A stretch of 64,000 nucleotides of DNA from an uncultured Acidobacteriota bacterium. Lineage in GTDB: Bacteria; Acidobacteriota; Thermoanaerobaculia; UBA5066; Gp7-AA6. The translations under genes were made by a program, and so were the position numbers. The stretch spans positions 17,244-81,243 of the forward strand of contig CAWDUQ010000002.1 in the NCBI GenBank assembly GCA_963805495.1, in the 5' to 3' direction. Below, piece after piece: positions 4,436 to 63,406 of this stretch. The notes under the pieces were generated by a model. It searched no databases. It was not told the DNA's origin and saw only the letters and a list, made by a program, of their open reading frames with translations. The stretch's first letter is position 1. Each line of letters starts with the position of its first letter.

Positions 4436-4438
4436 GGC

Positions 4439-4463
4439 GGGCGGCCGCAAGGGCCGCCCCTAC
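4439..4463 (-). repeat. Family-2 REP unit (GTAG + 8-bp stem + 5-nt loop)
   Basis: The reverse complement reads GTAG GGGCGGCC CTTGC GGCCGCCC. It starts 4 nt after the deaD stop. Confidence 0.75.
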
Positions 4464-4483
4464 GACCCGGGGCCCCGGAGGCC

Positions 4484-5558: not shown

Positions 5559-7130
5559 GTGCTGAAATGCGGCTCCCAGGAGGCCGACCCGCTGGATAAC
5601 CTCTGCCACACGCTCGCGGGCGCGGCCATCGCGCAGGCCGGGCCGTTTCGGAAGACGCCGCTCGCCGTGGCGACGGTCATGATCGGCGCGAATCTGCCGG
5701 ACGTCGATGCGTTCGCCTACGTCTTCGGCGACGGCGTCGATGCGCTGGCGTTCCGGCGCGGCTGGACGCACGGGATCCTCGCGATGGCGGTGCTGCCGGT
5801 GGTCCTGGCCGGGGCGATGCTCGCGTTCGACCGCCTCGTGCGCCGCCGGCTCCGGCCCGAACGGCCGGCCGCGCGCTGGGGACCGCTGCTCGCCCTGTCC
5901 GCGCTCGGAGTGCTGTCGCACCCGCTGCTCGACTTTCTCAACACGTACGGCGTGCGGTTCCTGGCGCCGTTCTCGTGGAAGTGGTTCTACGGGGACGCGC
6001 TCTTCATCGTGGACCCGTGGGTCTGGATCGCGCTTTCCGTCGGAGTGTTCCTCTCGCTCCGCCGGGCGCGCCGGGCTTCTCCCAATCCGGAGCGGCCGGC
6101 GCGGGTCGCGCTGCTTCTGACGGCCGCGTATGTCGTGACGATGATGCTGTCCGGCGTCGTCGGACGGGTGGCCGCGGCCCGCTCCGTCGCGGGCTCGGAG
6201 CGCCGCATGGTGGGGCCGGTGCCCCTCAATCCCTTCCGGCGCCAGCTCGTCCTCGACTTCGGCGACGCGTACCGCTACGGCTCCGTCGAGTTCCTGCCCC
6301 GGCCGGCGATCGAGGTCTCGGGCGAGGTCGATCCGAAGGGCGCGAACGATCCGCTCGCGCGCGCGGCGGCGGCGACGGAGCGGGGGAGGAAGTTTCTGTC
6401 GTGGTCGCGCTTTCCGATCTTCCGCGTGGAGCGCGAGGCGGACGGCGGCGCCAGCGTCGAGCTGGCCGATGCCCGCTACCCGCCGTTCCACGGGAGCTGG
6501 GCCTCGACCGTCATCCGGCTGCCCGCGCCGCGGGTCGGTGAGGGAGCGGGCGGCACGCCAGGAATCGGCGGGGCGAAGATAACCCGGGCGCCCGCCTCAG
6601 CCGAGACCGAGAAACAGCAGGAGGCCCTCGTCGATCGCGGCGATTTCGCCGGGCGCGAGCCGGCCGAAGATCCGCGTGACCCGGCGCTTGTCGATCGAGC
6701 GGACCTGGTCAACGAGCGCGTAGGAGGTTTGTCGCAGGCCGCTCGAGCCCGCCGCCAGAGGCGGATAGAGCACTCCTTCGCCGGCGGTGGAGCTGATCGG
6801 TACGACCGCGAGGAGGGGAAAGCGTTGGTCTTCGGTGATGGCGGGGTCGCTGACGATCACACAGGGGCGGGTCCCGCGTTGCTCGCGACCTCGCGTCGGA
6901 TCGAGCTCGGCGAGGACGACGGTCCCTCGTGGGAGCTTCACTTCCGGGAGTCCGTCCAGCCGCGGCCTTCGACCCAGCGGATCGACTTGCCGGCGGTGCG
7001 ATCGAGCAGCTCCGAGTCGGCTTCGTTCGCGCGCACGCCCCATTCGGTCAGGCCGGCGTCGGCGAGCTGCCCGGATTCGGAATGGGGACGCTCGAGCGAG
7101 CGGCGGAGCTCGTCGCGCCGCCGGCGCTGA
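5559..7130 (+). CDS. YdjM-like (DUF457) membrane-bound metal-dependent hydrolase; the 3' end is doubtful
   Basis: The N-terminal 320 aa or so look genuine: DNLCHTLAGAAIAQAG.., GANLPDVD, RGWTHG, SHPLLDFLNTYGV and several TM segments. There is no in-frame stop until 7130. The last 190 codons or so are low-complexity and antisense to the mazEF module. Confidence 0.6.
   Translation: MLKCGSQEADPLDNLCHTLAGAAIAQAGPFRKTPLAVATVMIGANLPDVDAFAYVFGDGVDALAFRRGWTHGILAMAVLPVVLAGAMLAFDRLVRRRLRPERPAARWGPLLALSALGVLSHPLLDFLNTYGVRFLAPFSWKWFYGDALFIVDPWVWIALSVGVFLSLRRARRASPNPERPARVALLLTAAYVVTMMLSGVVGRVAAARSVAGSERRMVGPVPLNPFRRQLVLDFGDAYRYGSVEFLPRPAIEVSGEVDPKGANDPLARAAAATERGRKFLSWSRFPIFRVEREADGGASVELADARYPPFHGSWASTVIRLPAPRVGEGAGGTPGIGGAKITRAPASAETEKQQEALVDRGDFAGREPAEDPRDPALVDRADLVNERVGGLSQAARARRQRRIEHSFAGGGADRYDREEGKALVFGDGGVADDHTGAGPALLATSRRIELGEDDGPSWELHFRESVQPRPSTQRIDLPAVRSSSSESASFARTPHSVRPASASCPDSEWGRSSERRSSSRRRR
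6597..6941 (-). CDS. mazF: MazF/PemK-family toxin (endoribonuclease)
   Basis: VKLPRGTVVLAELDPTRGREQRGTRPCVIVSD...LLAVVPISS...SYALVDQVRSIDKRR matches the PemK/MazF pattern. The GTG start at 6941 overlaps the antitoxin stop (GTGA). Confidence 0.8.
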   Translation of the reverse strand: MKLPRGTVVLAELDPTRGREQRGTRPCVIVSDPAITEDQRFPLLAVVPISSTAGEGVLYPPLAAGSSGLRQTSYALVDQVRSIDKRRVTRIFGRLAPGEIAAIDEGLLLFLGLG

Positions 7131-7252
7131 ACTTCCCGGCGCACGGCATCGAGCACGAAGCGGCTGCGGTTTCGCTCCCGCCGGTCGATCTCGGCGACGA
7201 GTTCGGGCGGCAGGGTGACGGTAATCCGGGCGGCCGGCATGAGTATGATCAT
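6938..7252 (-). CDS. Ribbon-helix-helix (CopG/MetJ-type) antitoxin
   Basis: ..MPAARITVTLPPELVAEIDRRERNRSRFVLDAVRREV.. is an RHH motif. The start is either ATG 7252 (GGTGAG upstream) or ATG 7240 (MPAARITV). Confidence 0.7.
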   Translation of the reverse strand: MIILMPAARITVTLPPELVAEIDRRERNRSRFVLDAVRREVQRRRRDELRRSLERPHSESGQLADAGLTEWGVRANEADSELLDRTAGKSIRWVEGRGWTDSRK

Positions 7253-7910: not shown

Positions 7911-7956
7911 CGTCTCGCCTCCGCCAGCGAGGGCGCGCTCGAGTGTATTTGAGAGA

Positions 7957-7981
7957 GGGCGGGGGCCAGCCCCGCCCCTAC
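7957..7981 (-). repeat. Family-2 REP unit
   Basis: The reverse complement reads GTAG GGGCGGGG CTGGC CCCCGCCC. It lies between two convergent gene ends. Confidence 0.75.
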
Positions 7982-8015
7982 GAACCGGAGCGTCGATGGG
8001 GGATTGGCGCAACGA

Positions 8016-9814: not shown

Positions 9815-9921
9815 GGGAGGGGGCAAGCCCCTCCCCTACGAATACCGGCTGCTCGAACCCGTTTCGCCTTCCGTCAGAATTTTCGGGCCCTCGTACGTAG
9901 GGGCGGCCCTTGTGGCCGCCC
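9815..9921. repeat. Inverted pair of family-2 REP units (REPIN/BIME-like)
   Basis: 9815-9839 reverse complement: GTAG GGGAGGGG CTTGC CCCCTCCC. 9897-9921: GTAG GGGCGGCC CTTGT GGCCGCCC. The spacer is 57 nt, in a divergent intergenic region. Confidence 0.8.
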
Positions 9922-9957
9922 GCTCCGCCCGTCGGCTACCATGTCGCGGTGGAAGCG

Positions 9958-10863: not shown

Positions 10864-10931
10864 GGGCGGCCACGACGGCCGCCCCTGCGAGAGCGCGTCC
10901 CCGGTCGTAGGGGCGGGGTTTATCCCCGCCC
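10864..10931. repeat. Inverted pair of family-2 REP units
   Basis: 10864-10888 reverse complement: GCAG GGGCGGCC GTCGT GGCCGCCC. 10907-10931: GTAG GGGCGGGG TTTAT CCCCGCCC. The pair lies between convergent stops. Confidence 0.8.
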
Positions 10932-10950
10932 GATTTCGGGCTCGGCGGGG

Positions 10951-22885: not shown

Positions 22886-22983
22886 GTAGGGGCGCCCCTT
22901 GCGGGCGCCCTCTCCTGTGCCGTTCGAGCGGCGGCACGCGAATCGTCAGCGCGTCGTCGGGCGGCCACGAGGGCCGCCCCTAC
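22886..22983. repeat. Convergent pair of family-2 REP units
   Basis: 22886-22910: GTAG GGGCGCCC CTTGC GGGCGCCC. 22959-22983 reverse complement: GTAG GGGCGGCC CTCGT GGCCGCCC. The pair lies inside a 427-nt divergent intergenic region. Confidence 0.8.
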
Positions 22984-23200
22984 AGCCAGGGTCCCACCGC
23001 GCCACGGTGCGTGAATAACCTGTTGAGAAACGACACCTCGCGCGGCGGGGAGGGCGGCCGGACGTGAACCTGCATTCGAAGGCGTCGGCGGTCGAGTTCC
23101 GTGGGAGCACGTCTCCGCGCGTTCCGCCGTCTGGACTCCCGCGCCGCGCGTGTGGTGTGATCGTCCCCTTCGATCCCTCGACACGACAACGGAGGTCCCG

Positions 23201-29761: not shown

Positions 29762-29910
29762 GGGGTCAGCCCTGAAAGTCTGAAAGTTGAGCGCCTCTCC
29801 ACGACCGGCGTTGCCGAACTCCCTGGCCGCGTGGCTCGATGCGGCCGATGACCCCTCAGTGTCAGACTTTCAGGTCCGGCCCCAAGTGTCATTCTTTCAG
29901 GGCTGACCCC
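29762..29910. repeat. Composite family-1 element (three units)
   Basis: 29762-29790: GGGGTCAGCCCTGAAAGTCTGAAAGTTGA. 29856-29883 reverse complement: GGGGCCGGACCTGAAAGTCTGACACTGA. 29884-29910 reverse complement: GGGGTCAGCCCTGAAAGAATGACACTT. An extra TGACCCC lies at 29849-29855. Confidence 0.8.
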
Positions 29911-29928
29911 ATTGGGTAGGATGAACGG

Positions 29929-32790: not shown

Positions 32791-34950
32791 CTACGGGCCG
32801 TACAGCCTGAGCCGGAACGTCTTGGCCAGAAATGGGGCCATCTGGCCGCGGGTGGTCGCGTTTCCGGGGCAGTAGTTCCCGCCGCCGCAGCCGGCGGCGA
32901 CGCCCCGGTTGGCCAGTTGCTCGATCCAGTCGGCGAAGAGGCTCGGACACGGAACGTCCGCGAAGGATCCGACGCACCCCGGAGGAACGTAGCCCGGGTC
33001 TTCGACCGTGCGCAGGAGGAAGACCGCCATCTGCTGCCGGAGGACCGGATCGTTCGGGCAGTAGTTCGGGCCGCCCGGGGCCGAGCAGCCGGCGACGATG
33101 CCGCGGTGGAACAGCTCCTCGATCCACGGCGCGAACGGGTCGGCCGCCGCGACGTCGTTGAACACCCCGGTGGCGGGCGGCGGAACGTAGGAGGGTCCGT
33201 TGCTCGCCTTGAGGACGAAGACGGCCATCTGCTTGCGCAGCGTGGAGGCGCCGGGGCAATACCCCCCGCATGCGCCGCCCGCGGTGATTCCGTTGTGGAA
33301 GATGTTTTCGACGAACGGATAGAAGATGTGGGACGTCGGCACGTCCGCGAAGCTCTCGCCGACGTGCAGGGTCCACGTCTTGGTGACTCCCGTGCCGAGC
33401 GCCTCGTCGAACGTCGCGTCCCAGTGCGGGGACGGGCGGGCGCCGGCAATCGAGAACTCGTAGCAGTTGGGACCGGCGTCGACGCAGCTCGCGTCCGACG
33501 CCGGAGGAATCGTTCCGTAGCCGGCGGCCGTGTCGCCGAGCGTGTACACCGGACCCACCGGCCCCTTGAAGTTGCCGGCGGTGCCCGACAACGGGAGACC
33601 GGATCCCGAGGAGTTCCTCCACGCCGGATCGACGGCCACGGTCTCGCCCGCTTCGAATATGCCGTTGACGTTGGAGGCGCCGCTCGAAGCGCGGCCGTCC
33701 ACGTTCATCGGCAGGGCTTCGGGGAAGCCGGCGCGACGGGCGAAGACCCCGAAGCTCGTCGGGCTGTCCTGCGCGATGCTCTGCCAGGCGGCCACGAACT
33801 GGCCGCTCGGGTCGACGGCGACCGCGGGCCGGCCCTGGTTGGCGTGGGACTCGACGTTCAAGCGAAACTCCGGCGCCGGGAGCGCGTCGGACGACGGGAA
33901 ACGCCGCGCCCACACCTCCGGGGCATCGGCGCTCGCTGGCGGCTCGGGACCCTGCCAGACCACGATCACGTCGCCCGCGGCGGAGACGACGGCCCTCGGC
34001 GAATCCTGGGACCCGGTCGTGTAGGTGTTGAGCGGAATCTCGTCGATGATCGGCGTCGAGCCGTCGAACCCGCGGCCGAAGACGCCGTTTCCGTCGCCGT
34101 CCTGCGGGCTCTGCCACGCGACGGCAAACGAGGTGGAGCTGAGCACGGCCACGCTCGGCGCCAGCTGCGCGCCGGTCGTGTAGGCATTGACCGGGATCTC
34201 GGACGACAGGGGGTTCCCGCCGGCGTCGAATCGCCTGGCGAAGATTCCCTCCATGTCGCCGTCCTGGCCGGGGCTTTCCCAGGCCACGACGAACTCGCCG
34301 GAGGAAGCCATCGCGACGTCGGGGTGCGTCTGATTTCCGGTCGTGTACGTGTTGACCACGAAGTCGTTGCCCTGCGGCGTCCCGGCGGAGTCGAAGCGCC
34401 GGGCGACGATCGCGAACCCGTTCGCATCCTGCGAGAAGCTCTGCCAGACGACGACGAAGTTGCCCGAGCCGTCCATCGCGACCCGGGGCGAGTCCTGGTT
34501 GCTCGTCGTGAACGAGTTGACCGGGAACTCGCCTCCCGCGGGCGCCCCGGCCGCGTCGAATCGCCGGCCGAAGACCCCGGTCCCGGAACCGTCCTCGCCG
34601 GTCTCCTGCTGCCAGACGACGACGAAGCCGCCGGCCGGAGCGCAGGCGACCGAGGCCGCGCTCTTCGTCCCGGACGTGTAGGTGTTGACCGGGAGCTCGG
34701 CCGTCAGCGCAGCGCCGGCCGGGTCGAAGAGGCGGGCGAAAACGCCGCGCGTCCCGTTGTCCTGCCCGACGCTGTCCCAGGCGACGACGAAGTTTCCGGA
34801 ATCCGCGGAGGAGACCGACGGATACGCCTGGTGGCCGGTCGTGTAGGTGTTGACCTGGAACTCCGGGCCGAGCGCCGGCACCTGGCCGAGGAGCGCGGAG
34901 CCGAGGAGGGCCTGTGTCAGCGCCAGGAGCGCGGAATACCGAAAACGCAT
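32791..34950 (-). CDS. Secreted protein with seven propeller-like repeats of 47-57 aa, a middle domain and three SLH-like modules
   Basis: The start MRFRYSALLAL.. at 34950 is preferred; the ORF opens at 35016. There are 7 units of (F/I/L)(P/Q/V/R)(V/L)N(T/S/A)(Y/F)T(T/S).Q..P.VA....G.FVV.W.S..QDG...G(V/I)F.RRFD..G.P...E spanning nt 33727-34860. There are 3 modules of F.DVP...F..(I/V)E.(L/I)...G(I/V).AGC.....(N/Y)(Y)CP......R.QMA.F(L/V) spanning nt 32794-33351. Confidence 0.8.
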   Translation of the reverse strand: MRFRYSALLALTQALLGSALLGQVPALGPEFQVNTYTTGHQAYPSVSSADSGNFVVAWDSVGQDNGTRGVFARLFDPAGAALTAELPVNTYTSGTKSAASVACAPAGGFVVVWQQETGEDGSGTGVFGRRFDAAGAPAGGEFPVNSFTTSNQDSPRVAMDGSGNFVVVWQSFSQDANGFAIVARRFDSAGTPQGNDFVVNTYTTGNQTHPDVAMASSGEFVVAWESPGQDGDMEGIFARRFDAGGNPLSSEIPVNAYTTGAQLAPSVAVLSSTSFAVAWQSPQDGDGNGVFGRGFDGSTPIIDEIPLNTYTTGSQDSPRAVVSAAGDVIVVWQGPEPPASADAPEVWARRFPSSDALPAPEFRLNVESHANQGRPAVAVDPSGQFVAAWQSIAQDSPTSFGVFARRAGFPEALPMNVDGRASSGASNVNGIFEAGETVAVDPAWRNSSGSGLPLSGTAGNFKGPVGPVYTLGDTAAGYGTIPPASDASCVDAGPNCYEFSIAGARPSPHWDATFDEALGTGVTKTWTLHVGESFADVPTSHIFYPFVENIFHNGITAGGACGGYCPGASTLRKQMAVFVLKASNGPSYVPPPATGVFNDVAAADPFAPWIEELFHRGIVAGCSAPGGPNYCPNDPVLRQQMAVFLLRTVEDPGYVPPGCVGSFADVPCPSLFADWIEQLANRGVAAGCGGGNYCPGNATTRGQMAPFLAKTFRLRLYGP

Positions 34951-35125: not shown

Positions 35126-35668
35126 GTGATCTCGGTTCTGCTGGCATCGGCGCTCGCAGCCTCGGCGGCGGGCAGCGGCGTGGCGGAGCCGACGACGGTC
35201 GCCAGGGTCGACCTCGACCGGTACGCCGGCCGGTGGTACGAGATCGCGCGCTATCCAAACCGGTTCCAGAAGCGCTGCACCGGCGACGTCGTCGCGCGCT
35301 ACACGCTCGAGGCCGACGGGACGATCGGCGTCGACAACGGCTGCCGTGACGGGCGCGGCGGCGAGAGACGCGCCCACGGTGTCGCCCGAAACGTCTCGAC
35401 GGACGGCTCGAACTCGAAACTGAAGGTGCGTTTCGCGCCCCGGGTGCTGGCCTGGCTCCCCTTCGTGTGGGCGAACTACTGGATCCTGGCGCTCGCCGAC
35501 GACTACAGCTACGCGGTCGTCGGGACGCCGGACCGCGAATACCTGTGGATCCTGTCGCGCAGCCCGGCGCTGCCGGAGGCGGTCTTCGAGGATCTCGAGC
35601 GGCGCGTCGCCGCGCAGGGCTACGACCCCGCGCGGCTCGTGCGCACGCCCCAGTCCGGCGCGCGATAA
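35126..35668 (+). CDS. blc: Bacterial lipocalin (Blc-like)
   Basis: VDLDRYAGRWYEIARYPNRFQKRC.. and ..NYWILALADDYSYAVVGTPDREYLWILSR.. are Blc signatures. Confidence 0.9.
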   Translation: MISVLLASALAASAAGSGVAEPTTVARVDLDRYAGRWYEIARYPNRFQKRCTGDVVARYTLEADGTIGVDNGCRDGRGGERRAHGVARNVSTDGSNSKLKVRFAPRVLAWLPFVWANYWILALADDYSYAVVGTPDREYLWILSRSPALPEAVFEDLERRVAAQGYDPARLVRTPQSGAR

Positions 35669-35699
35669 CTCAGAAAGTCAGAAAGTCAGGACTGACCCC
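35669..35699 (-). repeat. Family-1 single unit
   Basis: The reverse complement reads GGGGTCAG TC CTGACTTT CTGACTTT CTGAG. It lies between the blc stop and the response-regulator 3' end and contains the regulator's actual stop codon. Confidence 0.8.
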
Positions 35700-43485: not shown

Positions 43486-44732
43486 CCGCGGTGGACCTCG
43501 TGGCGCACGTGGCGGCTTTCGCTGGCGCTCTTCGGGAGCGCGGGGTCCGCGCGGGCCTCTCGGACGAGGCTGACGCCGTGGCCGCCCTGACGCTCGTCGA
43601 CCTCGCGGACCGCGAGGAGGTGCGCCTGGCGCTGCGGACGGCGCTGAAAATCCGCGCGCGCGACGCCGGGGTCTTCGAGGAGCTCTTCGCGCGCCTCTGG
43701 AGCAGCGCGGGCCGGCCGGCGCGCGAGCGCGCGGCCCGGGCCCGGTCGAGTCGGCGGGATGCGCCGCAGAAAAACTTCGGCGGCCTGCCGGCGTCGGCGG
43801 CCCGGGAAGTCGACCGGGAGGTGCGCGACGGGTCGGACCGAACGCCCGGCTACAGCCCCGAAGCGATGCTTCGCCGCAAGCCTTTCGACGAATGCTCCGA
43901 GCGGGACCTCGCCGCGATGGAGCGGCTGATGTCGCGCCTCGCCCTCTCGCTTGCGACGCGCCGCAGCCGGCGGCTCGTCCCGACCCGGGGCCGCGGCCGC
44001 GTCGATCCGCGCCGCAGCTTCCGGAAGGCCGTCGGGACGGCCGGCGAGCCGCTGCGCTTGGCGCGGCGGGAGCGGGCGATCGAGGAGCCGCGCCTGGTCG
44101 TCCTCTGCGACACCAGCGGCTCGATGGACCGCCACGTGCGGTTCCTGCTTTCCTTCCTGCTGTCGCTCAAGAAAGCCGCGCGCCGCACCGAGCTCTTCGC
44201 GTTCAACACCTCCCTCGTGAGGCTGACGCCCTGGATCTCGCCGGCGAAGATCGCGGCCACACTCGAGCGCCTCGCCGCCGGCGTTCCGGGCTGGTCCGGC
44301 GGCACCCAGATCGGCCGCAGCCTCGGCGCCTTCGTCGAGCGATACCTGGACGAGCTCGTCGATGCGAGGACGGTGGTCGTGATCGTCAGCGACGGTCTCG
44401 ACCGCGGGGACACGGCGGAGCTCGCGGCGGCGATGCGGGCGATCCGAGCCCGGGCGCGCAGGATCGTCTGGCTCAATCCGCTGCTCGGCGACGCGCGGTA
44501 CGAGCCGACCGCGCGGGGAATGGCGGCCGCCCTGCCGCACGTCGACGTCTTCGCGTCGGCGCACAACCTGGAAGCGCTCGAGAGGCTCGTTCCGCGGCTG
44601 TCGGCCGCCAGGGGTCAGCGTCTCGGATTTTTCGGATCCGAACCGGCTAGATCATTGGACGAGTCAGCCCTCGGATCCGAAAAATCGAGACCTGACCCCG
44701 TCGTTTTTCGCCTTCGAAAGGAGAGGTCATGA
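43482..44732 (+). CDS. coxE: VWA-domain protein (CoxE-type) with a repeat-encoded C-terminal extension
   Basis: [14 protein letters not shown] and ..[16 protein letters not shown].. are present. The homology-like sequence ends near ..[11 protein letters not shown]. The final 40 codons or so are read through the family-1 hairpin at 44611-44699. ATGA overlaps occur at both ends. Confidence 0.85.
44611..44699. repeat. Family-1 variant inverted pair (89-nt hairpin)
   Basis: Left arm: GGGGTCAGCGTCTCGGATTTTTCGGATCCGAA. Right arm, reverse complement: GGGGTCAGGTCTCGATTTTTCGGATCCGAGGG. It lies between the CoxE-like body and the coxM start. Confidence 0.8.
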
Positions 44733-48464: not shown

Positions 48465-48466
48465 GT

Positions 48467-48519
48467 GGGGTCAGCCCTGAAAGAATGACACTTGGGGCCT
48501 GACCTGAACATCTGACGTT
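48467..48519 (+). repeat. Family-1 tandem doublet
   Basis: GGGGTCAGCCCTGAAAGAATGACACTT followed by GGGGCCTGACCTGAACATCTGACGTT. The first 27 nt are identical to the reverse complement of 29884-29910. The doublet starts 3 nt after the coxL TAG. Confidence 0.85.
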
Positions 48520-48533
48520 TATGGAGGGCCGGC

Positions 48534-50344: not shown

Positions 50345-50688
50345 TCGTCGTCCTGTTCCGGTCGCGGCTGACCGACGAGGCCGGTGAAGAATACGCGGCG
50401 ATGGACCAGATGCTCGCCGAGAAGGCGCGGAACGCCCCCGGTTTCGTCGACGTCAAGAGCTTCACCGCGTCCGACGGCGAGCGCCTGACGATCGTCTGGT
50501 GGAAGGATCTCGAGACGCTCCGTCAGTGGCGGGAGGATCCCGCCCACCGCGTCGCGCAGGAGAAAGGCCGGCGGCTCTGGTATCGGTACTACGACATGGA
50601 GGTGGCCGAGGTCGTCCGCGAGAGTCACTTCGCGCGGCAAAGTTCAGACTTTCAGGTCAGGCCCCAGGTTACAGACTTGCAGGGCTGA
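50341..50688 (+). CDS. ABM (antibiotic biosynthesis monooxygenase)-domain protein with a repeat-encoded tail
   Basis: The GTG start overlaps the upstream stop (GTGA). [10 protein letters not shown]...FVDVKSF..DGERLTIVWWKDLETLRQWREDPAH is an ABM pattern. The last 16 codons or so and the TGA (50686-50688) lie inside the family-1 doublet. Confidence 0.75.
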   Translation: MIVVLFRSRLTDEAGEEYAAMDQMLAEKARNAPGFVDVKSFTASDGERLTIVWWKDLETLRQWREDPAHRVAQEKGRRLWYRYYDMEVAEVVRESHFARQSSDFQVRPQVTDLQG

Positions 50689-50692
50689 CCCC
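50639..50692 (-). repeat. Family-1 tandem doublet (reverse orientation)
   Basis: The reverse complement reads GGGGTCAGCCCTGCAAGTCTGTAACCT followed by GGGGCCTGACCTGAAAGTCTGAACTT. Confidence 0.85.
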
Positions 50693-52725: not shown

Positions 52726-55700
52726 GCCCGTCTCGTCCCTTCATCCTCCGGCCGGTCGCCACGTCTCTCCTGATGGCCGGCCTGCTGCTCGCGGGGGTCG
52801 TGGCCTACCGCCAGCTTCCCGTCTCGGCGCTCCCGCAGGTCGACTACCCGACGATCCAGGTCGTGACCTTCTATCCGGGCGCGGGCCCCGAGGTCATGGC
52901 CTCCTCCGTCACGGCCCCGCTCGAACGCCAGTTCGGCCAGGTCCCGGGCCTGAACCAGATGACGTCGACCTCCGCCGACGGCGCCTCGGTCATCACGCTG
53001 CAGTTCGCGCTCGACCTCGACATCGACATCGCCGAGCAGCAGGTGCAGGCCGCGATCAACTCGGCCGGGTCCTTCCTGCCGCGGGACCTTCCCAATCCTC
53101 CCGTTTACAGCAAGGTCAACCCGGCCGATGCCCCGATCCTGACGCTCGCGCTGACCTCCGAGACGCTGCCGCTGTCGAGGGTCCACGACCTCGCCGATAC
53201 GCGCCTGGCGCAGAAGATGGCGCAGCTGCCGGGGGTGGGCCTCGTGTCGCTCTCGGGCGGCCAGAAGCCCGCCGTGCGCATCCGCGCCAATCCCACGGCG
53301 CTCTCCTCCTACGGCCTCACGCTCGAGGACGTGCGGACCGTGATCGCCGCTTCCAACGTCAACCAGGCCAAGGGCAGTTTCGACGGCCCGAACCACGCGT
53401 ACACGATCGGCGCCAACGACCAGCTTCTTTCGAGCTCCGACTACCGGCCCCTCGTCATCGCGTACCGCAACGGCGCGCCGGTGCGGCTCGAGGACGTCGC
53501 CGACGTCGTCGACGCGACGGAGAACATCCGCCAGGCCGCCTGGATGGACCGCGTCCCGGCGGTCATCCTGAACATCCAGCGGCAGCCGGGGGCGAACATC
53601 ATCTCGGTCGCCGACCGCGTCAAGGCCCTCCTCCCGCAGCTTCAGGCGTCGCTGCCCTCGGCCGTGAAGGTCACGATGCTGACCGACCGGACGACGACGA
53701 TCCGCGCCTCGGTGCGCGACGTGCAGCTCGAGCTGATGCTCACGATCGCGCTCGTCGTCATGGTCATCTTCCTCTTCCTGCGCAACCTCGCCGCGACCCT
53801 GATCCCGAGCGTGGCCGTGCCCCTTTCCCTCGTCGGCACGTTCGCCGCGATGTACCTGCTGGGCTACAGCCTCAACAACCTGACGCTGATGGCGCTGACG
53901 ATCGCGACCGGCTTCGTCGTCGACGACGCGATCGTCATGATCGAGAACATCGTGCGCTACGTCGAGGACGGCATGAAACCGCTGGAGGCCGCGCTCAAGG
54001 GCGCCGAGCAGATCGGTTTCACGATCATGTCGTTGACGGTCTCGCTGATCGCCGTGCTGATCCCGCTCCTCTTCATGGGCGACGTCGTGGGCCGCCTCTT
54101 CCGCGAGTTCGCGGTGACGCTCTCGGTGACGATCCTCGTTTCGGCGGCGGTCTCGCTGACGTTGACGCCGATGATGTGCGCGAAGATCCTGCGCCACCGG
54201 CCGGCGTCGCAACAGTCGCGCTTCGAGCGGTCGGCCGAGCGGGCCTTCGTCCGCGTGCAGGGGTTCTACCGGCGGACCCTCGAGAAGGTCCTCGAGCACC
54301 AGCCGGCGACCCTGGCCGTGGCCGTCGGCACGCTCGTCCTGACGGTCGCCCTCTACGTCTTCATCCCCAAGGGCTTCTTCCCGGTCCAGGACACGGGCGT
54401 CATCCTCGGGATTTCGGAAGCCGAGCAGTCGGTGTCCTTCGCGACGATGGCCGAGCGCCAGCAGGCCCTGGCGCGCGTGATCCTGGCCGACCCGGCCGTC
54501 GCGAGCCTGTCGTCGTTCATCGGGATCGACGGCACGAACGCGACGTTGAACAGCGGGCGGATCCAGATCAATCTCAAGCCGCTCGCCGACCGTGAATTGC
54601 GGGCGAGCGCGCTCATCCGCCGCCTCCAGCCGAAGCTGGCGTCGGTGCCGGGGATCACCCTCTACATGCAGCCGGCCCAGGAGCTGACGGTCGAGGACCG
54701 CGTCAGCCGGACGCAATACCAGTACAGTCTCGAGCACCCGGACGCGGCGGTCCTCGACGAGTGGGTTCCGAAGCTGATGGAGCGGCTGAGGAAGCTGCCG
54801 CAGCTGGCCGACGTCGCGAACGACCAGCAGAACCGGGGCCTTCGGGTGACGCTCGCTCTCGACCGGGCGACGATGTCGCGCCTGGGGCTGACGCCGCTGT
54901 CGGTCGACGACGCGCTCTACAACGCTTTCGGCCAGCGCCAGATCTCGACCATGTTCACCCAGCTCAATCAGTACCGGGTGGTCCTCGAGGCCGATCCCGT
55001 CTTCCAGCGGACCCCCGAGGACCTCGCCCACGTCTACGTCCGCAGCTCATCCGGGGCGGTCGTGCCGCTCTCGGCGTTCAGCCGCATCGAGTCGTCGCGC
55101 GCACCCCTCGCGATCAACCACCAGGGTCAGTTCCCGGTCGTGACGATCTCCTTCAACCTCGCGCCCGGAGTCTCGCTCGGGGAGGCGGTGCGGGCGATCG
55201 AGCGGGCGAAGGCGGAGCTCGGCCTGCCTCCCGGCGTCCAGGCCGGGTTTCAGGGCACGGCGCGTGCCTTCCGCGCCTCGCTCGTCAACACGCCCCTCCT
55301 GATCCTCGCGGCGATCGTGACGGTCTACATCCTGCTCGGCGTCCTCTACGAGAGCTACATCCACCCGGTGACGATCCTCTCGACGCTGCCCTCGGCGGGA
55401 GTCGGCGCGCTCCTGTCCCTGATGATCTGCCGGATGGACTTCAACGTGATCGCGTTGATCGGGATCATCCTGCTGATCGGCATCGTCGAGAAGAACGCGA
55501 TCATGATGATCGACTTCGCCCTCGACGCCGAGCGCAAGGAAGGCAAACCCCCGCGCGAAGCGATCTTCCAGGCGTGCCTTCTGCGGCTGCGGCCGATCCT
55601 CATGACGACGTTTGCGGCGCTTCTCGCGGGCGTGCCCCTGGCGGTCGGGGGCGGAACGGGCGCCGAACTGCGGCGGCCGCTCGGCGTCGCGATCGTCGGC

Positions 55701-55844
55701 GGTCTCATCTTTTCGCAGGTCCTGACGCTCTACACGACCCCCGTCATCTACCTCGCGTTCGACCGGCTCGCGCGCCGCGTGGCGCGCCGGGGCGCTCGCG
55801 GCCGGGTCCGTGCGCCGGCGCCGGCGGCGACGGAGGGCCGGTGA
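52722..55844 (+). CDS. mdtB: RND multidrug efflux permease (MdtB-like)
   Basis: The TTG start overlaps the mdtA stop. [24 protein letters not shown].. is followed by AcrB-type architecture over 1040 aa. Confidence 0.93.
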
Positions 55845-58800
55845 GCGTTTCGGAGGCCTTCATCCGGCGCCCCGTCGGCACGACGCTCCTGACGATCGCC
55901 GTGGCGCTCGCCGGCGGCGTGGCGTACTTCTTCCTCCCGGTCGCGCCCCTTCCGCAGGTCGAGTTCCCGACGATCCACGTCTCGGCGAGCCTGCCGGGGG
56001 CGAGCCCGGAGACGATGGCCTCGTCGGTCGCGACACCGCTCGAGCGCCAGTTCGGGCGGATCGCCGGGATCAACGAGATGACGTCCTCGAGCTCGCTCGG
56101 CGAGACGGACGTCTCGCTCCAGTTCGACCTCGGCCGAAACGTCGACGCCGCGGCGCGCGACGTGCAGGCCGCCATCAACGCCGCGCGCGGGCAGTTGCCC
56201 GCAAGTCTTCCGTCGAACCCCCGCTTTCACAAGGTCAATCCGGCGGACGCGCCCATCCTGCTCCTCGCGCTCGCCTCGGACGTCGTGGAGAAGGGCGTCA
56301 TCTACGACGTCGCCTCCTCGATCCTGCAGCAGAAGATCTCGCAGGTCGAGGGCGTGGGCCGCGTGTTCGTGGGCGGTGGGGCCCTGCCCGCGGTCCGCGT
56401 CGACGTCAATCCCACGGCCCTGAACAGCGCCGGGCTCTCGCTCGAGGACGTGCGCGGCTTCCTGGGCTCCGCCAACGCCAACCGGCCCAAGGGCCAGCTC
56501 GGGGCCGGAGCGCGCGCGTGGGCGATCGGCGCGACCGACCAGCTCCGCTCGGCCGCCGATTACCGGCCGCTCGTCCTGTCCTACCGCGACGGCGGCGCGC
56601 TTCGCCTTTCGGACGTCGCGACGGTCCTCGACTCGGTCGAGGACGTGCGGACGAGCGGCGTCGCCAACGGAAAGCCGGCCGTCATCATCATCATCTTCCG
56701 TCAGCCCGGAGCGAACATCATCGCGACGGTCGACCGGATCAAGGCGCTCCTGCCGCAGCTGCAGCAGGACCTTCCGCCGACGATCCAGCTCGCCGGGGTG
56801 ATCGACCGCTCGACCACCATCCGCGCCTCCGTGCGGGACGTCCAGGTGACGCTCGGGATCTCGATCGCCCTCGTCATCCTGGTCGTCTTCGTCTTCCTGC
56901 GGAGCCTCCGCGCGACGCTCATCCCGAGCGTCGTCGTGCCCGTGTCGCTCGTCGGGACCTTCGGGGCGATGTACTTCCTGGGCTACAGCATCGACAACCT
57001 GTCGCTGATGGCCCTGACGATCGCCACCGGCTTCGTGGTCGACGACGCCATCGTCGTGATCGAGAACATCACGCGGCACCTCGAATCGGGGGCGTCGCCG
57101 TTGGAGGCCGCGCGCCGGGGCGCCCGCGAGATCGCCTTCACGGTCTTCACGATCAGCATCTCCCTCGTGGCGGTCTTCATCCCGATCCTCCTGATGGGAG
57201 GCATCGTCGGGAGGTTGTTCCGGGAGTTCGCCGTAACCCTCTCGGTCGCGATCCTCATCTCCATGGTCATCTCCCTGACGACGACGCCGATGATGTGCGC
57301 GATGCTGCTCCGCCGGCCGGCCGAGGAAAAGGCGGGCCGGTTCTTCCGGGCGAGCGAGCGGACCGTGGAATGGCTGCGCTCGCTGTACCGGCGGTCCCTC
57401 GCGTCGGTCCTGCGGCACCAGCCCCTGACCCTCGCGGTCACGCTCGCGACGATGGCGGCGACGGTCTTCCTGTACGTCCTCATCCCCAAGGGCTTCTTTC
57501 CGCAGCAGGACACGGGCCGGCTGGCGGGGTCGATCCAGGCCGACCAGAACTCCTCCTTCCAGGCGATGGACCGCCGGGTCGCGCGGTTCGTCGACATCGT
57601 CATGCAGGACCCCGGCGTCGACTACGTGCAGGCCTATGCCGGCGGCGATTCGCCCAACACCGGCCGGATGTTCGTGAACCTCAAGCCCGTCGGCGCGCGC
57701 GACGCTTCGGCCGACGAGATCATCGCAAGGCTGCGGCCGAAGCTCGCGCAGGTGCCGGGGGCTTCGCTCTATCTCCAGTCGGTCCAGGACCTGCGCATCG
57801 GCGGCCGGGCGAGCGCCTCGCAGTTTCAGTACACCCTGCGCAGCGACGACGTCCGGGACCTGCAGGAATGGGCGCCCCGCGTTCTCGCGCGCCTGCGCCG
57901 GATCCCGAGCATCGCCGACGTCAACAGCGACCAGCAGGTCCGGGGCCTCGAGGCCTCCCTGACCGTCGACCGTGCGACGGCCTCCCGTCTCGGCATCACG
58001 CCCCGGGCGATCGACAACACGCTCTACGACGCCTTCGGGCAGCGTCCGGTCTCGACGATCTACACCGCGCTCAACCAGTACCACGTGATCCTGGGGCTCG
58101 AGCCGAGGTACCAGCAGGGCCCCGAGGCCCTCGAGGCCGTGCGCGTGCGATCCAACGACGGCTCGCTCGTTCCGCTGGCGGCGTTCGCGCGCTACGAGCC
58201 GTCCACGGCGCCGCTGGAGGTCAACCACCAGGGGCTCTTCCCCGCGGTCACGATCTCGTTCGCCCTCGCGCCGGGCCGGGCGCTCGGCGACGCGGTCGAG
58301 GACATCCAGCGGGCCACGGCCGAGGCCGGCCTGCCGGCCTCGATCCGAGGCAGTTTCCAGGGCACGGCACAGGCGTTCCAGGCCTCGCTCGCCAACCAGC
58401 CGTGGCTGATCCTCTTCGCGCTTCTGACGGTCTACATCGTGCTCGGGATCCTCTACGAGAGCTTCATCCACCCGATCACGATCCTTTCGACGCTCCCCTC
58501 GGCCGGAGTCGGCGCCCTGCTCGCCCTTCTCCTTTTCCGGACCGAGCTCTCGGTCATCGCGCTGATCGGGATCATTCTCCTGATCGGCATCGTCAAGAAG
58601 AACGCCATCCTCATGATCGACTTCGCCATCGAGGCCGAGCGGCGGGAGGGCAAGAGCCCGGACGAGGCGATCTTCGAGGCCTGCATGCTCCGCTTCCGTC
58701 CGATCACGATGACGACGATGGCGGCGTTGCTCGGCGGGCTTCCCCTGGCGATCGGACTCGGCACCGGGGGAGAGCTGCGGCGGCCGCTCGGCATCGCGAT

Positions 58801-58945
58801 CGTCGGCGGCCTCATCTTTTCGCAGATGCTGACGCTCTACACCACTCCGGTCGTCTACCTGTATCTCGACCGCCTCCGGATCCGGTGGGCGGACCTGCGG
58901 CGCCGGCGCTTCCGCCGGCCCGTGCTCGTGAGGAGCGGACCATGA
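55841..58945 (+). CDS. mdtC: RND multidrug efflux permease (MdtC-like)
   Basis: The GTG start overlaps the mdtB stop (GTGA). [22 protein letters not shown].. opens a 1034-aa product that is paralogous to the upstream pump. Confidence 0.93.
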
Positions 58946-60036
58946 AGCGTCGTTTCCGGATCCCGGCCGTGTTTCTCGGCGCGGCCCTCGCGGCCGCGGC
59001 GTCGGCCCAGACGATGTCGATCGAGGAGTACGAGCCGAAGTCGACGCTCGTCGTTCCCGAGCACCACCCGTCGAAGGCGAAGTATCCGTTCATCGACGTT
59101 CACAACCACCAGGACCGGGACATCTCGGCCGAGGAGGCCCGCCAGCTCGTCGCCGACATGGACCGGATCGGCATGCGGGTCATGGTGAATCTCTCGGGAT
59201 CGCAGGGGGCCGAGCTCGTGAAGGGGCTCGCGAATCTCGCCGGTCGGTATCCCGGGCGGTTCGTGGTCTTCGCCAACCTCGACTTCAAGGGCATCTCGGA
59301 GCCGGGCTGGGGAGAGCGGGCGGCCGCGCAGCTCGCGCGCGACTACGCCGCCGGGGCCCGGGGCCTCAAGATCTTCAAGAACCTCGGGATGACGGTGATG
59401 GACGGCTCGGGCAAGCGCGTCCCGGTCGACGACCCGCGCATCGACCCGGTGTGGGACAAAGCGGGGGAGCTCGGCATCCCCGTCCTCATCCACACCGCCG
59501 AGCCGCACTCCTTCTTCGAGCCCCAGGACAAGTACAACGAGCGCTGGCTGGAGCTCAAGCAGTTCCCGCAGCGCGCGCGACCGCCGGAGAAGTTTCCGCC
59601 GTTCGAGCAGCTCATGACCGAGCAGCATCACATGTTCGAGAAACATCCGAAGACGAAGTACATCGACGCGCACCTCGGCTGGCTCGGCGGGGATCTCGGG
59701 CGGCTCGGCAAGCTCTTCGACCGCCTGCCGAACGTCTACACCGAGATCGGCGCCGTGCTGGCCGAGCTCGGCCGCCAGCCCCGCTTCGCGCACGACTGGT
59801 TCGTGAAGTACCAGGACCGCGTGCTCTTCGGGAAGGACTCCTGGGCGGCCGACGAGTACCTCGTCTACTTCCGCGTGCTCGAGACCGACGACGAGTACTT
59901 CGACTACTACCGGAAACGGCACGCCTTCTGGAAGATGTACGGCCTCGCGCTGCCGGACGAAGTCCTGAAGAAGATCTACTACAAAAACGCGCTCAGGATC
60001 GTGCCGGGGATCGACCCGTCGGGGTTTCCCCCGTAG
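58942..60036 (+). CDS. Secreted amidohydrolase-2 (TIM-barrel metal-dependent hydrolase) family protein
   Basis: An ATGA overlap links it to the mdtC stop. It has a signal peptide, and ..FIDVHNHQ.. and ..VLIHTAEP.. motifs are present. Confidence 0.75.
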   Translation: MKRRFRIPAVFLGAALAAAASAQTMSIEEYEPKSTLVVPEHHPSKAKYPFIDVHNHQDRDISAEEARQLVADMDRIGMRVMVNLSGSQGAELVKGLANLAGRYPGRFVVFANLDFKGISEPGWGERAAAQLARDYAAGARGLKIFKNLGMTVMDGSGKRVPVDDPRIDPVWDKAGELGIPVLIHTAEPHSFFEPQDKYNERWLELKQFPQRARPPEKFPPFEQLMTEQHHMFEKHPKTKYIDAHLGWLGGDLGRLGKLFDRLPNVYTEIGAVLAELGRQPRFAHDWFVKYQDRVLFGKDSWAADEYLVYFRVLETDDEYFDYYRKRHAFWKMYGLALPDEVLKKIYYKNALRIVPGIDPSGFPP

Positions 60037-61092
60037 GGGTCAATCGTGTATTCCTGTATTCGCAGAGCCGAGCAATGCGGAGATCTCGGCAACTCGCGCA
60101 CGCAGGCCGGGATCCCGGGCCATCACATCCTCGAGCCGCCGTACGCCACGGTTGAACGTCGACTCTTCCCGGCCAAAGCACCTCGCCATGGCCGCGATCG
60201 AGAACCCCGCGTCCCGCCAGCCAAGGTAGGCAGCCATTAGCCGCACGCGCGATTCCCTCAGACACTTACCCGGCTTTTCCAGATGACTCAATGATAGGCC
60301 CTCGGACCGTGCCACTGCGTCGGCCAGACTCTCCGGCGTCCACCGGCTCGGCATCCGTCGACCCTCGCCGACGGCAGCCAGCGCGCGCTCGGCGAACCCA
60401 CGCTCCCCTTTGACGGCGAACCCGTACGCGGGGACATCGTCGTAGGTCTGCTCCTCGCGTCTCGACATCAGCCGCCGGTAGACCGACACCGCCCGGGCCC
60501 GATCCGGCGCCAGAAGCGTGAGCACGCCGTCCATGTCCAACCAAGCCGGTCCCGTCCCGGATCGATAGTACGAATCGCTCGACCAGCGAAACGCCTCGGG
60601 TCGAGCGACGACGCCCGCCGCCACGGGATTCAGATGGATGTACCGCAGCAGGGCGAGGAGATAACGCTCCTCCTGGACGAGAAAGCTCTTGTAGCGGCCC
60701 TGAAACAGGTGGCCGACCCGACGGTGCCGGGAATTGAACTTCTGCGCGTAGAAGGATTGGAGCGTCAGCATGAACCGGGAGAGTGGGTCCGGGCCTCTTC
60801 CGAGGGCGAGGTGGACGTGGTTGTCCATCAGGCAATAGGCGAGGACGCGGAACCTCAGCCGGTTCCGACACTCTCCCAGCCTCTCGAGGTAGATCGTGCG
60901 GTCAATGTCGTCGCGGAAGATTTCCCTGCGTTCGTTGCCGCGCGCGATCACATGGTAGACACCCCCGGTGACCTCGACTCGCAGCGGCCGCGGCACGAAC
61001 ACCTCCAGGCAAGGCGACTTCGCCTACTTAGAGTTGTCGCGAGCGGGATCCCCGGGCACCAGGAATACAGGAATACACGGTTGACCCCTTAC
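60033..61092 (-). mobile_element. RAYT-like Y1-transposase unit bounded by inverted repeats of about 29-30 nt
   Basis: IR-L at 60033-60061: GTAGGGGTCAATCGTGTATTCCTGTATTC. IR-R at 61063-61092, reverse complement: GTAAGGGGTCAACCGTGTATTCCTGTATTC. A single gene lies between them. Confidence 0.75.
60040..61002 (-). CDS. IS200/IS605-type Y1 (HUH) transposase-like protein, REP-associated (RAYT-like), with a C-terminal DnaA-domain-IV-like HTH
   Basis: HUH DNHVHLAL and the catalytic-Tyr region LLRYIHLNP are present. The C-terminal ..RVRLMAAYLGWRDAGFSIAAMARCFGREESTFNRGVRRLE.. resembles the DnaA C-terminal DNA-binding domain. The last 6 codons and the TGA are encoded by IR-L. Confidence 0.85.
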   Translation of the reverse strand: MFVPRPLRVEVTGGVYHVIARGNERREIFRDDIDRTIYLERLGECRNRLRFRVLAYCLMDNHVHLALGRGPDPLSRFMLTLQSFYAQKFNSRHRRVGHLFQGRYKSFLVQEERYLLALLRYIHLNPVAAGVVARPEAFRWSSDSYYRSGTGPAWLDMDGVLTLLAPDRARAVSVYRRLMSRREEQTYDDVPAYGFAVKGERGFAERALAAVGEGRRMPSRWTPESLADAVARSEGLSLSHLEKPGKCLRESRVRLMAAYLGWRDAGFSIAAMARCFGREESTFNRGVRRLEDVMARDPGLRARVAEISALLGSANTGIHD

Positions 61093-61664
61093 ACGACGGC
61101 TTCCTCCGCCACCGGCGCTGGCGTCGCGGCGATCTCGAGCGCCACGGCGGCCGCGTGGATGGTCGCCGCGATCCGGATGGCGTCGTGGACCTGGTCCTCG
61201 GAGAGGTGCCCGTCGACGACGACCTTCTCGTGGGCGCGGACGCAGGCCTCGCAGCCGTTGATCGCGGAGGCCGCGAGCGAGAAGAGCTCGAAGTCGACCT
61301 TGCTCGTCGCGGGCTTGCCGAGGCGGTTCATGCGCAGGCGCGCCGGCTTCTCCGAGTACACGGGCTTGCCGACGACGTGCCGGAACCGGTAGTAGACGTT
61401 GTTCATCCCCATCAGGGCCGCCGCCGCGAGGGCGTCCTCGACCGCCGGCTCGCCGACGGCGCGCCGGGCGTCCGAGAGGACGGCCTCGAGCAGGCCGGGG
61501 TGCCGCGCCGCGGCCGCCGAAGCGACCGCGACGCCCCAGCGCTGCTCGGGGGAGAGGCTCCCCTCGGCGAGCACGGTCTGGAGGTTCAGCTTGACGTCCC
61601 GGGCGAGGTCCGGGAGGGCCTCCCGGACCGCCTCGAGGCCGTCGTAGGAACGCGCGGCCGTCAT
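61089..61664 (-). CDS. ahpD: Alkyl hydroperoxide reductase AhpD (carboxymuconolactone decarboxylase family)
   Basis: ..LFSLAASAINGCEACVRAHE.. is the CxxC motif. An ATGA overlap links it to the ahpC stop. Confidence 0.9.
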   Translation of the reverse strand: MTAARSYDGLEAVREALPDLARDVKLNLQTVLAEGSLSPEQRWGVAVASAAAARHPGLLEAVLSDARRAVGEPAVEDALAAAALMGMNNVYYRFRHVVGKPVYSEKPARLRMNRLGKPATSKVDFELFSLAASAINGCEACVRAHEKVVVDGHLSEDQVHDAIRIAATIHAAAVALEIAATPAPVAEEAVV

Positions 61665-63278: not shown

Positions 63279-63376
63279 GGGCGGCCACAAGGGCCGCCCC
63301 TACGCTGTGGCCCGGAATTGGCCGTCCCCCCGGGAGGAACGGGCTCGGGTCGTAGGGGCGGGGCTTGTCCCCGCCC
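63279..63376. repeat. Inverted pair of family-2 REP units
   Basis: 63279-63303 reverse complement: GTAG GGGCGGCC CTTGT GGCCGCCC. 63352-63376: GTAG GGGCGGGG CTTGT CCCCGCCC. The pair lies between convergent gene ends. Confidence 0.8.
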
Positions 63377-63406
63377 TCCGCGAACTCGGCTTCGAGGCTA
63401 GTTCCC

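Follow-up and report, generated by a model that had tools for sequence, protein, structure and literature searches.

RAYT-like genes that are flanked by terminal inverted repeats (TIRs) have been named TIRYTs, and their units TIRtrons (Di Nocera, De Gregorio and Rocco, 2013, BMC Genomics 14:522, PMC3733652), RAYTs being the tyrosine transposases associated with repetitive extragenic palindromes (REPs). In the available text of that study, TIRtrons are described as having the common outer motif GGGGWSAS and a TIR that overlaps the 3' end of the gene, the TIRYTs of Acidobacteria as a sharply defined subgroup, and some TIR families as moderately abundant, occurring as singles, dimers or groups (PMC3733652). 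Most TIRYTs were placed in subclass 2.1 (Quentin, Siguier, Chandler and Fichant, 2018, PMC6006769); as far as the available text of this second paper goes, subgroup 2.1.2 carries a C-terminal extension with similarity to Bac_DnaA_C, HTH_23 or HTH_28, and the TIR bears no resemblance to a DnaA box (PMC6006769). The locus considered here is a unit of this kind on contig CAWDUQ010000002.1 of an uncultured Acidobacteriota bacterium, within a stretch of 64 kb (hereafter the window), which is the part of the host genome visible to us and to which all copy counts for the host refer. It is an ordinary member of a known, little-studied class and not a classical REP-associated RAYT. That it is a TIRYT/TIRtron of subclass 2.1.2 of the TnpA_REP superfamily, an assignment made by the domain make-up of its C-terminal extension and not by position in a tree, with the RAYT/IS608-like mechanism and the TA-adjacent insertion proposed below, is in our judgement probable.

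Several traits are shared with the described TIRtrons. The gene encodes a Y1 transposase that is homologous to RAYTs and longer than the classical ones, it is bordered by TIRs instead of REPs, the TIRs carry the GGGGWSAS tag, the 3' TIR lies over the gene, the C-terminus holds a Bac_DnaA_C-like helix-turn-helix (HTH), the Acidobacteria form a subgroup of the class, and the TIR family is of low copy number and, in related genomes, occurs as singles, doublets and arrays. It differs from the published units in the near-invariance of a 26-nt TIR across 12 genomes, in the abutment of the outer end to TA and stop codons, in C-terminal tails that are encoded by the TIR and co-vary with it, and in a direct repeat with a period of 8 nt, traits for which the available text of the two source papers has no counterpart. 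With the classical RAYT/REP systems, i.e., TnpA_REP of E. coli (PDB 4ER8) and the REPINs of Pseudomonas (Bertels and Rainey), the locus shares the catalytic fold, about one gene copy per genome as far as the window shows, a repeat of its own in inverted orientation, and doublets of this repeat that form long, REPIN-like hairpins. However, its unit repeat is non-palindromic, GTAG is not conserved, a DnaA-like HTH is added, the match to the family model NF047646 stays below the cut-off, and the repeats number single digits per related genome when counted by exact match, whereas those of classical RAYTs are present in hundreds. The transposases TnpA of the insertion sequences (IS) of the IS200/IS605 group, such as IS608 and ISDra2, have the same HUH/Y1 fold, but these elements possess subterminal hairpins and no TIRs, which are present here, lack an HTH domain and are usually multicopy.

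The initial annotation had read one minus-strand gene with HUH and catalytic tyrosine motifs, and a search with hidden Markov models (HMMs) bears this out: the open reading frame (ORF) is real and its product matches Y1_Tnp of Pfam (PF01797) over residues 14-123 with E=3.3e-13 and 50.3 bits (cut-off 23). Histidines H60 and H62 of the HUH motif and tyrosine Y119 are invariant across a family alignment of 39 sequences. REP_Tyr_transpos of NCBIfam (NF047646) is matched with E=2.8e-21 and 75.9 bits, below its cut-off of 80, and NF033573 scores 21.6 with a cut-off of 55. Two GTG codons could serve as start; the one at 60996 is preferred over that at 61002 because GGAGG lies 5 nt upstream of it and the database protein P0001 begins at the same place. 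Both domains are borne out by an AlphaFold2 model with a mean predicted local distance difference test (pLDDT) score of 85.7. The top match of the model in Foldseek is 4er8_A, which is TnpA_REP of E. coli in complex with a REP hairpin (E=8.6e-7, template modeling (TM) score 0.75), and the transposases of IS608, ISDra2 and IS200 are the runners-up. There is one copy of the transposase gene in the window, and a second Y1 gene was not found there.

The resemblance of the C-terminus to DnaA domain IV, which had been put at some 70 residues, stands as regards the fold, solid at the level of the family, while its size has to be raised to about 90 residues. For the window transposase alone, the Pfam search returned no PF08299 match, and the DnaA model TIGR00362 is matched weakly (E=0.003, 16.8 bits with a cut-off of 343.9), over no more than its last 100 or so positions (331-435 of 437); no AAA+ or other DnaA domain was found in the protein, which therefore does not qualify as a DnaA. 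Since Pfam gave no PF08299 match on the single sequence, a family profile was needed for detection. Compared with PDB entries, this profile matches the DNA-binding domains of DnaA with E-values from 1.7e-10 (3pvp) to 1e-4, and 30 of the 39 family members match PF08299 individually. The C-terminal part of the model superposes on domain IV of DnaA with TM scores of 0.84 (3pvp) and 0.87 (1j1v) and a root-mean-square deviation of 1.7-1.8 Å. Fold and detectable sequence homology are thus shared with DnaA domain IV (PDB 1J1V, 3PVP), but the TIR is unlike a DnaA box. In the HMM alignment the segment GREEST of the transposase stands opposite GRDHTT of DnaA. The GRDHTT segment comprises the residues that contact the DnaA box. 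As GREEST takes its place, the HTH of the transposase is expected to recognise a sequence other than the DnaA box. The protein consists of a HUH/Y1 domain of the RAYT lineage, predicted to be a nuclease-ligase for single-stranded DNA, and an HTH of the DnaA-domain-IV type.

The gene is bracketed by its own inverted repeats, as had been noticed before, with arms of 27 nt that are complementary at 26 of 27 positions (96%). A pattern of the 26-nt TIR has two matches in the window as compared to none in 100 shuffles, and the terminal repeat of the unit, 26-27 nt long, reads (A)GGGGTCAAYCGTGTATTCCTGTATTC. Its outer tag GGGGTCAA fits GGGGWSAS at seven of eight positions, the last one being A and not S; the other TIR families of the window, which have the head GGGGTCAG, match the motif at all eight. 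No hairpin was found in the single arms, whose folding energies of -0.2 and -0.7 kcal/mol (z-scores of +1.4 and -0.1) are those of shuffled sequence. Because single arms do not fold and carry the published GGGGWSAS tag, the flanking repeats are TIRs and not REPs, as which they had been taken. The left TIR holds the direct repeat TGTATTC twice with a spacing of 8 nt. Internal direct repeats as a trait of TIRs throughout the family were considered and set aside; they stay a lead.

A common architecture emerges from a comparison of 79 homologous loci, which belong to Acidobacteriota, Nitrospirota, Proteobacteria, Desulfobacterota, Bacillota and other phyla. An inverted repeat headed by GGGGTCA or GGGGACGG is present in most of them. 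Its upstream arm usually begins 33-70 nt ahead of the start codon; its downstream arm overlaps the stop codon, as in about two thirds of the credible cases, or follows it closely. Where the two overlap, the TGA of the gene corresponds to the TCA of GGGGTCA on the opposite strand. In the window, the last six codons of the transposase (NTGIHD) and its TGA are sequence of the left repeat, exactly as the initial annotation stated, and these residues 313-318 are modelled as disordered (pLDDT <50). Most close homologues listed keep NTGIHD followed by the stop, down to about 60% identity; in a sister clade, the proteins have S[DE][FL]QVRPQxS[DE]xQG before the stop. Between clades the C-terminal tails co-vary with the repeats, which suggests that the DNA, and not the peptide, is under constraint.

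The repeat is also dispersed outside the window. An exact match to the 22-mer TCAAYCGTGTATTCCTGTATTC was obtained in 19 stretches, which belong to 12 metagenome-assembled genomes (MAGs) of Acidobacteriota/Thermoanaerobaculia and in which the 26-nt core is nearly invariant while the flanks are unrelated. None of these 19 hits in the GTDB collection has flanks that match those in the window. Only four of the 19 hold a TIRYT gene, 64-71% identical to the window transposase; the remaining 15 are gene-less and comprise singles, inverted doublets with spacers of 20-64 nt, and tandem arrays. As single-stranded DNA, the doublets fold with -29 to -39.5 kcal/mol (z-scores of -7.6 to -11.3), whereas singles do not fold, and the doublets are the analogue of REPINs. 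Exact-match repeat units number at most about eight per related MAG. Two doublets, at the loci L186 and L096 of our numbering, lie where dozens of orthologous loci have an empty site. Like the window unit, three of the four related units that were examined (L087, L180, L181-184) are placed between convergent genes. Two otherwise identical metagenome contigs, L181 and L182, differ around 2860-2920 by one extra partial TIR head of 29 nt, GGGCACGGTTGGGGTCAATCGTGTATTTC, which lies upstream of the TIRYT gene and constitutes a population-level rearrangement at a TIR. Tandem direct arrays of three TIR units are present in L086 (2585-2700) and L092 (1462-1700), with units of about 40-60 nt including flanking sequence. 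The array of L086 is situated at the upstream end of a TIRtron.

These copies bear on the question of whether the unit is an ordinary autonomous IS that moves as a whole, from TIR over gene to TIR, so that gene-less copies would be deletion remnants and not the main substrates. Mobility of whole units is indicated by gene neighbourhoods which differ in every genome examined (cytochrome c and SQS_PSY, EAL and an unknown gene, Mrr and IS110), the last of these placing one unit beside Mrr and IS110 genes, by a contig with two paralogues that are 87% identical, and by the lack of the unit from the window site in the closest relative. Yet the window has a single copy and no genome was seen to hold identical ones, only four of the 19 repeat stretches bear the gene, the short and unrelated spacers of doublets at sites empty elsewhere fit independent mobilisation better than decay, and the proteins have diverged to 60-80% identity while the 26-nt repeat is almost invariant. 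An ordinary IS is therefore unlikely, and a TIRYT that acts on its own repeat family, as developed below, is preferred.

Between the right TIR and the start codon, a leader motif is shared with L180, L181, L185 and L179; its consensus T[CT]GCGACAA[CT]TCTA[AG]GTAG is common even to the 55%-identical paralogue at L179, and it may be a promoter or an operator. One might go further and regard the protein as mainly a DnaA-like HTH regulator, with repeats serving as autoregulatory operators or other regulatory sites and no transposition taking place. The short distance of the upstream repeat from the start codon in most of the family, a TTGACA-like hexamer in the upstream repeat of many clades, and the conserved leader motif would suit such a function. 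Invariant catalytic residues in both the HUH and tyrosine motifs do not, nor do dispersed copies that lie at the 3' ends of genes and not at promoters, nor the presence/absence polymorphism of doublets, which indicates movement; in addition, a consensus scan of 59900-61250 found neither a sigma-70-like promoter nor a terminator. A purely regulatory role is very unlikely, and the enzyme is taken to be a transposase in what follows.

The gene had also been proposed to drive at least one of the two dispersed repeat families of the window, an attribution that did not survive closer inspection. Family A is a classical GTAG REP with at least seven copies in the window. The reverse complement of family B encodes SDFQVRPQVSFFQG and a stop, which is how the proteins of a paralogous TIRYT clade (P0052, P0057, P0062) end, and family B sequence flanks the gene of P0062, 55% identical to the window transposase, in locus L179; family B is the TIR of this paralogous clade. 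No cognate Y1 gene for family B or for the GTAG REPs, a classical RAYT included, was found in the window. Since families A and B belong elsewhere, the cognate family of the window transposase is a third one, present in the window only as its own two arms. An inverted doublet and a single repeat, both with the head GGGGTCAG, complete the picture (Table 1). Within the doublet, TCGGAT is directly repeated at a period of 9 nt. Doublets similar to the single repeat GGGGTCAGTCCTGACTTTCTGACTTTCTGAG flank a TIRtron in L185 (about 2590-2640 and 4060-4110). Of the several repeat families with a GGGGTCA head in one genome, each is tied to its own paralogue.

The unit sits exactly on two convergent stop codons, the TAG of the upstream gene and the TAA of ahpD; this part of the initial annotation is confirmed, and such a position is far commoner than chance in related copies. 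The claim built upon it, that the inverted repeats supply three stop codons, is right as to where all three lie, but only the TGA of the transposase falls within the conserved core. This TGA is the one stop truly supplied by the repeat, as a feature of the whole clade. Inspection of the sequence reveals no stop codon in any inward frame of the 26-nt core. The upstream gene, called an amidohydrolase before, has no match in Pfam or NCBIfam at E<=0.1; it is conserved at 60-95% identity in MAGs of Acidobacteriota, Gemmatimonadota and Bacteroidota. All 12 of its nearest orthologues stop at the same codon (ending in FPP or FPN followed by TAG, TGA or TAA) and continue into unrelated DNA, and because these element-free orthologues end there, comparison of the sequences identifies the TAG as ancestral and native and not as supplied by the repeat, an outcome that the initial annotation had itself named as refuting its reading. 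The identity of ahpD is clear (TIGR00777 of NCBIfam, E=3e-51). Its C-terminal tail is variable, PAPVAEEAVV in the window and ETEDVAVM in L100, and its TAA, which holds the homologous position at the end of this tail, is probably native. The ahpD frame of L099 runs on into an adjacent gene for 632 amino acids (about 7130-7180); as the +1 frame yields an end in TEAVALV and stop, this read-through is probably an error or frameshift of 1 nt in a homopolymer.

These data weigh on the view that the inverted repeats provide the stops of both neighbours, by truncation or by selection, with GTAG or GTAA as the recognition tetranucleotide of a RAYT. Both repeats of the window are indeed preceded by GTA(A/G) with both neighbours ending there, TA[AG] stands before the G-run in one third of the related copies, and the classical REPs of the window also read GTAG-GGGG. 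Against this, orthologues that lack the element end at the identical codon, at the window site and likewise at two independent doublet sites, the conserved core begins with (A)GGGG and offers no inward stop, and a GTAG adjoining the G-run is confined to about 3-4 of 41 copies. We consider this view highly improbable. The headline of three stop codons is thereby mostly explained away, as one family-wide TGA of the transposase itself, one native stop and one probably native stop, and the idea of a GTAG tag survives only in the weakened form of a suggested insertion directed by TA.

How the unit reached its site is less simple than an insertion into an ancestral junction of the upstream gene and ahpD. 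In L099, where the upstream gene is 95% identical, and in L100, the 632-aa gene lies between these two genes and the TIRYT is absent. This gene (L099, 5199-7097) encodes a secreted-looking protein with a twin-arginine-like N-terminus. As it is present in both closest relatives and was not found in the window, the unit replaces about 2.1 kb rather than being plainly inserted, and such a replacement needs more than one event. Simple insertion was rejected on a second ground too, because one shared TA cannot serve both stop codons. Insertion at one of the stops, followed by an adjacent deletion mediated by the element's end and reaching the TA of the other stop, would give the flush fit on both sides.

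Abutment of this kind is not peculiar to the window. In 10 of 37 TIR copies, an ORF of at least 120 codons has its stop codon between -1 and +5 nt from the outer end, as compared to 0.5 at random positions, with P <5e-4 even under a generous null that assumes 8% for intergenic positions. TA is found 0-1 nt outside the TIR head in 14 of 41 copies where 1.55 are expected (P ~2e-10), the frequency of this dinucleotide in these loci being 1.26%. The L186 doublet, following an ADH-like gene, is flush with a native TAG that is the same codon in many orthologues, and the L096 doublet, behind a DSD1-like gene, is likewise flush with a native stop common to orthologues. At both doublets and at the window unit, TA is also present within 1 nt of the other end. 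The enrichment of TA and of stop codons at outer ends is suggestive of insertion directed by TA. Flush abutment to stops would follow because TA in tolerated positions of GC-rich genomes falls largely in TAG and TAA stop codons.

A target-site duplication of 3 bp or more was not found flanking the unit, and a consistent duplication as a general rule was rejected, as TA is present on both sides of three elements only and most copies have none. The same three elements, the window unit and the L186 and L096 doublets, are what might recommend TA-flanked doublets as miniature inverted-repeat transposable elements (MITEs) of an unrelated, TA-duplicating DDE transposase of the IS630/Tc1 type, the link to Y1 being incidental. 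However, each clade of Y1 genes has its own co-varying repeat at both ends with the stop of the gene inside it, TA on both sides is missing from most copies, and no DDE gene was seen beside copies except for the IS110 gene in L185. Hardly any credence attaches to such an origin. IS200/IS605 elements insert 3' of a short target motif without duplication, the target of IS608 being TTAC, and the TA boundary can be modelled on this mode of insertion.

By analogy with RAYT/REPIN and with IS200/IS605 (IS608), the TIRYT would act on its own repeat family. Two nearby inverted copies may fold in single-stranded DNA into a hairpin of 26 bp, which would be bound, cut at its base by the Y1 domain and re-inserted as a MITE-like doublet. 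The HTH might bind the duplex stem, perhaps at TGTATTC iterons of 8-nt period, and insertion would be directed next to TA. Doublets would be efficient substrates, while the gene-bearing unit of 1 kb, because it folds poorly, would move rarely and stay at about one copy. A more specific form of this proposal is that the family inserts directly 3' of TA, in an IS608-like single-strand mode with a matching TA at the other end of the element, that TAG and TAA stops are preferred, and that the HTH reads the TGTATTC iterons in the doublet stem; we put this forward tentatively and with more doubt than confidence. If true, the mode of target selection and substrate recognition would be new for any HUH transposase.

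Several points weigh against the proposed mechanism. TA occurs at only about one third of copy boundaries and on both sides of only three elements, and it could represent a base pair at the element's own terminus that is being lost, and not a target. Internal direct repeats are present in 32% of TIRs as compared to 16% in shuffles, with periods of 7-8, a modest enrichment. Beyond the two flanking arms, the window contains no further copies of this repeat. Variation of the ahpD tail among relatives leaves a native TAA likely, not proven. Finally, no biochemical work on any TIRYT was found in the literature searched, so that the mechanism is drawn by analogy only.

The coordinates of all features are collected in Table 1. 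Two repetitive regions of the window are of another nature. The region 52738-58458 consists of two long paralogous segments that have 70-75% identity, are offset by 3119 nt and are apparently tandem genes for RND-type transporters. At 33767-34863, a repeat of about 165 nt is present in seven tandem copies with 61-70% identity and probably belongs to a repeat-domain protein.

Table 1. Features of the TIRtron, its borders and the other repeats of the window.
Feature	Position	Strand	Details
Whole TIRtron	60035..61089	minus	Left TIR, TIRYT gene, 66-nt leader and right TIR; 1055 bp; inverted repeat
TIRYT gene	60040..60996	minus	318 aa and TGA; P0001 100% identical, 318 aa
Alternative GTG start	61002	minus	ORF 60040-61002, 320 aa
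Shine-Dalgarno GGAGG	61002..61006	minus	5 nt before GTG 60996; read from sequence
Y1/HUH catalytic domain	60634..60963	minus	About residues 12-121; NHVHL (H60, H62), RYIHLNP (Y119); Pfam PF01797
DnaA-domain-IV-like helix-turn-helix	60064..60339	minus	About residues 220-311; profile, PF08299, Foldseek
Left TIR (gene-distal)	60035..60061	plus	A GGGGTCAATCGTGTATTCCTGTATTC; outer tag GGGGTCAA
Right TIR (gene-proximal)	61063..61089	minus	A GGGGTCAACCGTGTATTCCTGTATTC; 66 nt upstream of start codon
TIR-encoded tail NTGIHD and TGA	60040..60060	minus	Stop is reverse complement of TCA in GGGGTCA
Leader motif TCGCGACAACTCTAAGTAG	61024..61042	minus	Between right TIR and start codon; shared with L180, L181, L185, L179
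TAG stop of upstream gene (58942-60036)	60034..60036	plus	Native; only last G overlaps TIR core
TAA stop of ahpD (61089-61664)	61089..61091	minus	Outside GGGG core; only last A pairs within inverted repeat
Family A, GTAG and GGGCGGCC-loop-GGCCGCCC hairpin	4437-4475, 7955-7991, 9885-9923, 10899-10932, 22959-22993, 63279-63313, 63341-63379
Family B repeat GGGGTCAGCCCTGAAAGAATGACACTTGGGGCCTGACCTGAAAGTCTGAC (GGGGTCAGCCCTGAAAG..TGAC)	29762-29784, 29861-29911, 48466-48520, 50639-50692
Inverted doublet of GGGGTCAG-headed repeat	44611-44699		89 bp; folds at -33 kcal/mol, z-score -7.2
Single GGGGTCAG-headed repeat GGGGTCAGTCCTGACTTTCTGACTTTCTGAG	~35668-35699	minus	Direct repeat of 8-nt period

The TIRYTs are a very large family across many phyla. 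Among the candidates examined, 4,762 homologues of the window transposase reach E<=0.001, many of them with precomputed matches to both PF08299 and PF01797, and they are labelled RayT by JGI, a label under which a separate class, marked by TIRs and a DnaA-type HTH, goes unnoticed. Native stops flush with the repeats together with the enrichment of TA, the C-terminal tails encoded by the repeats, and the hairpin-forming doublets provide handles on how a Y1 enzyme might use TIRs in place of REP hairpins.

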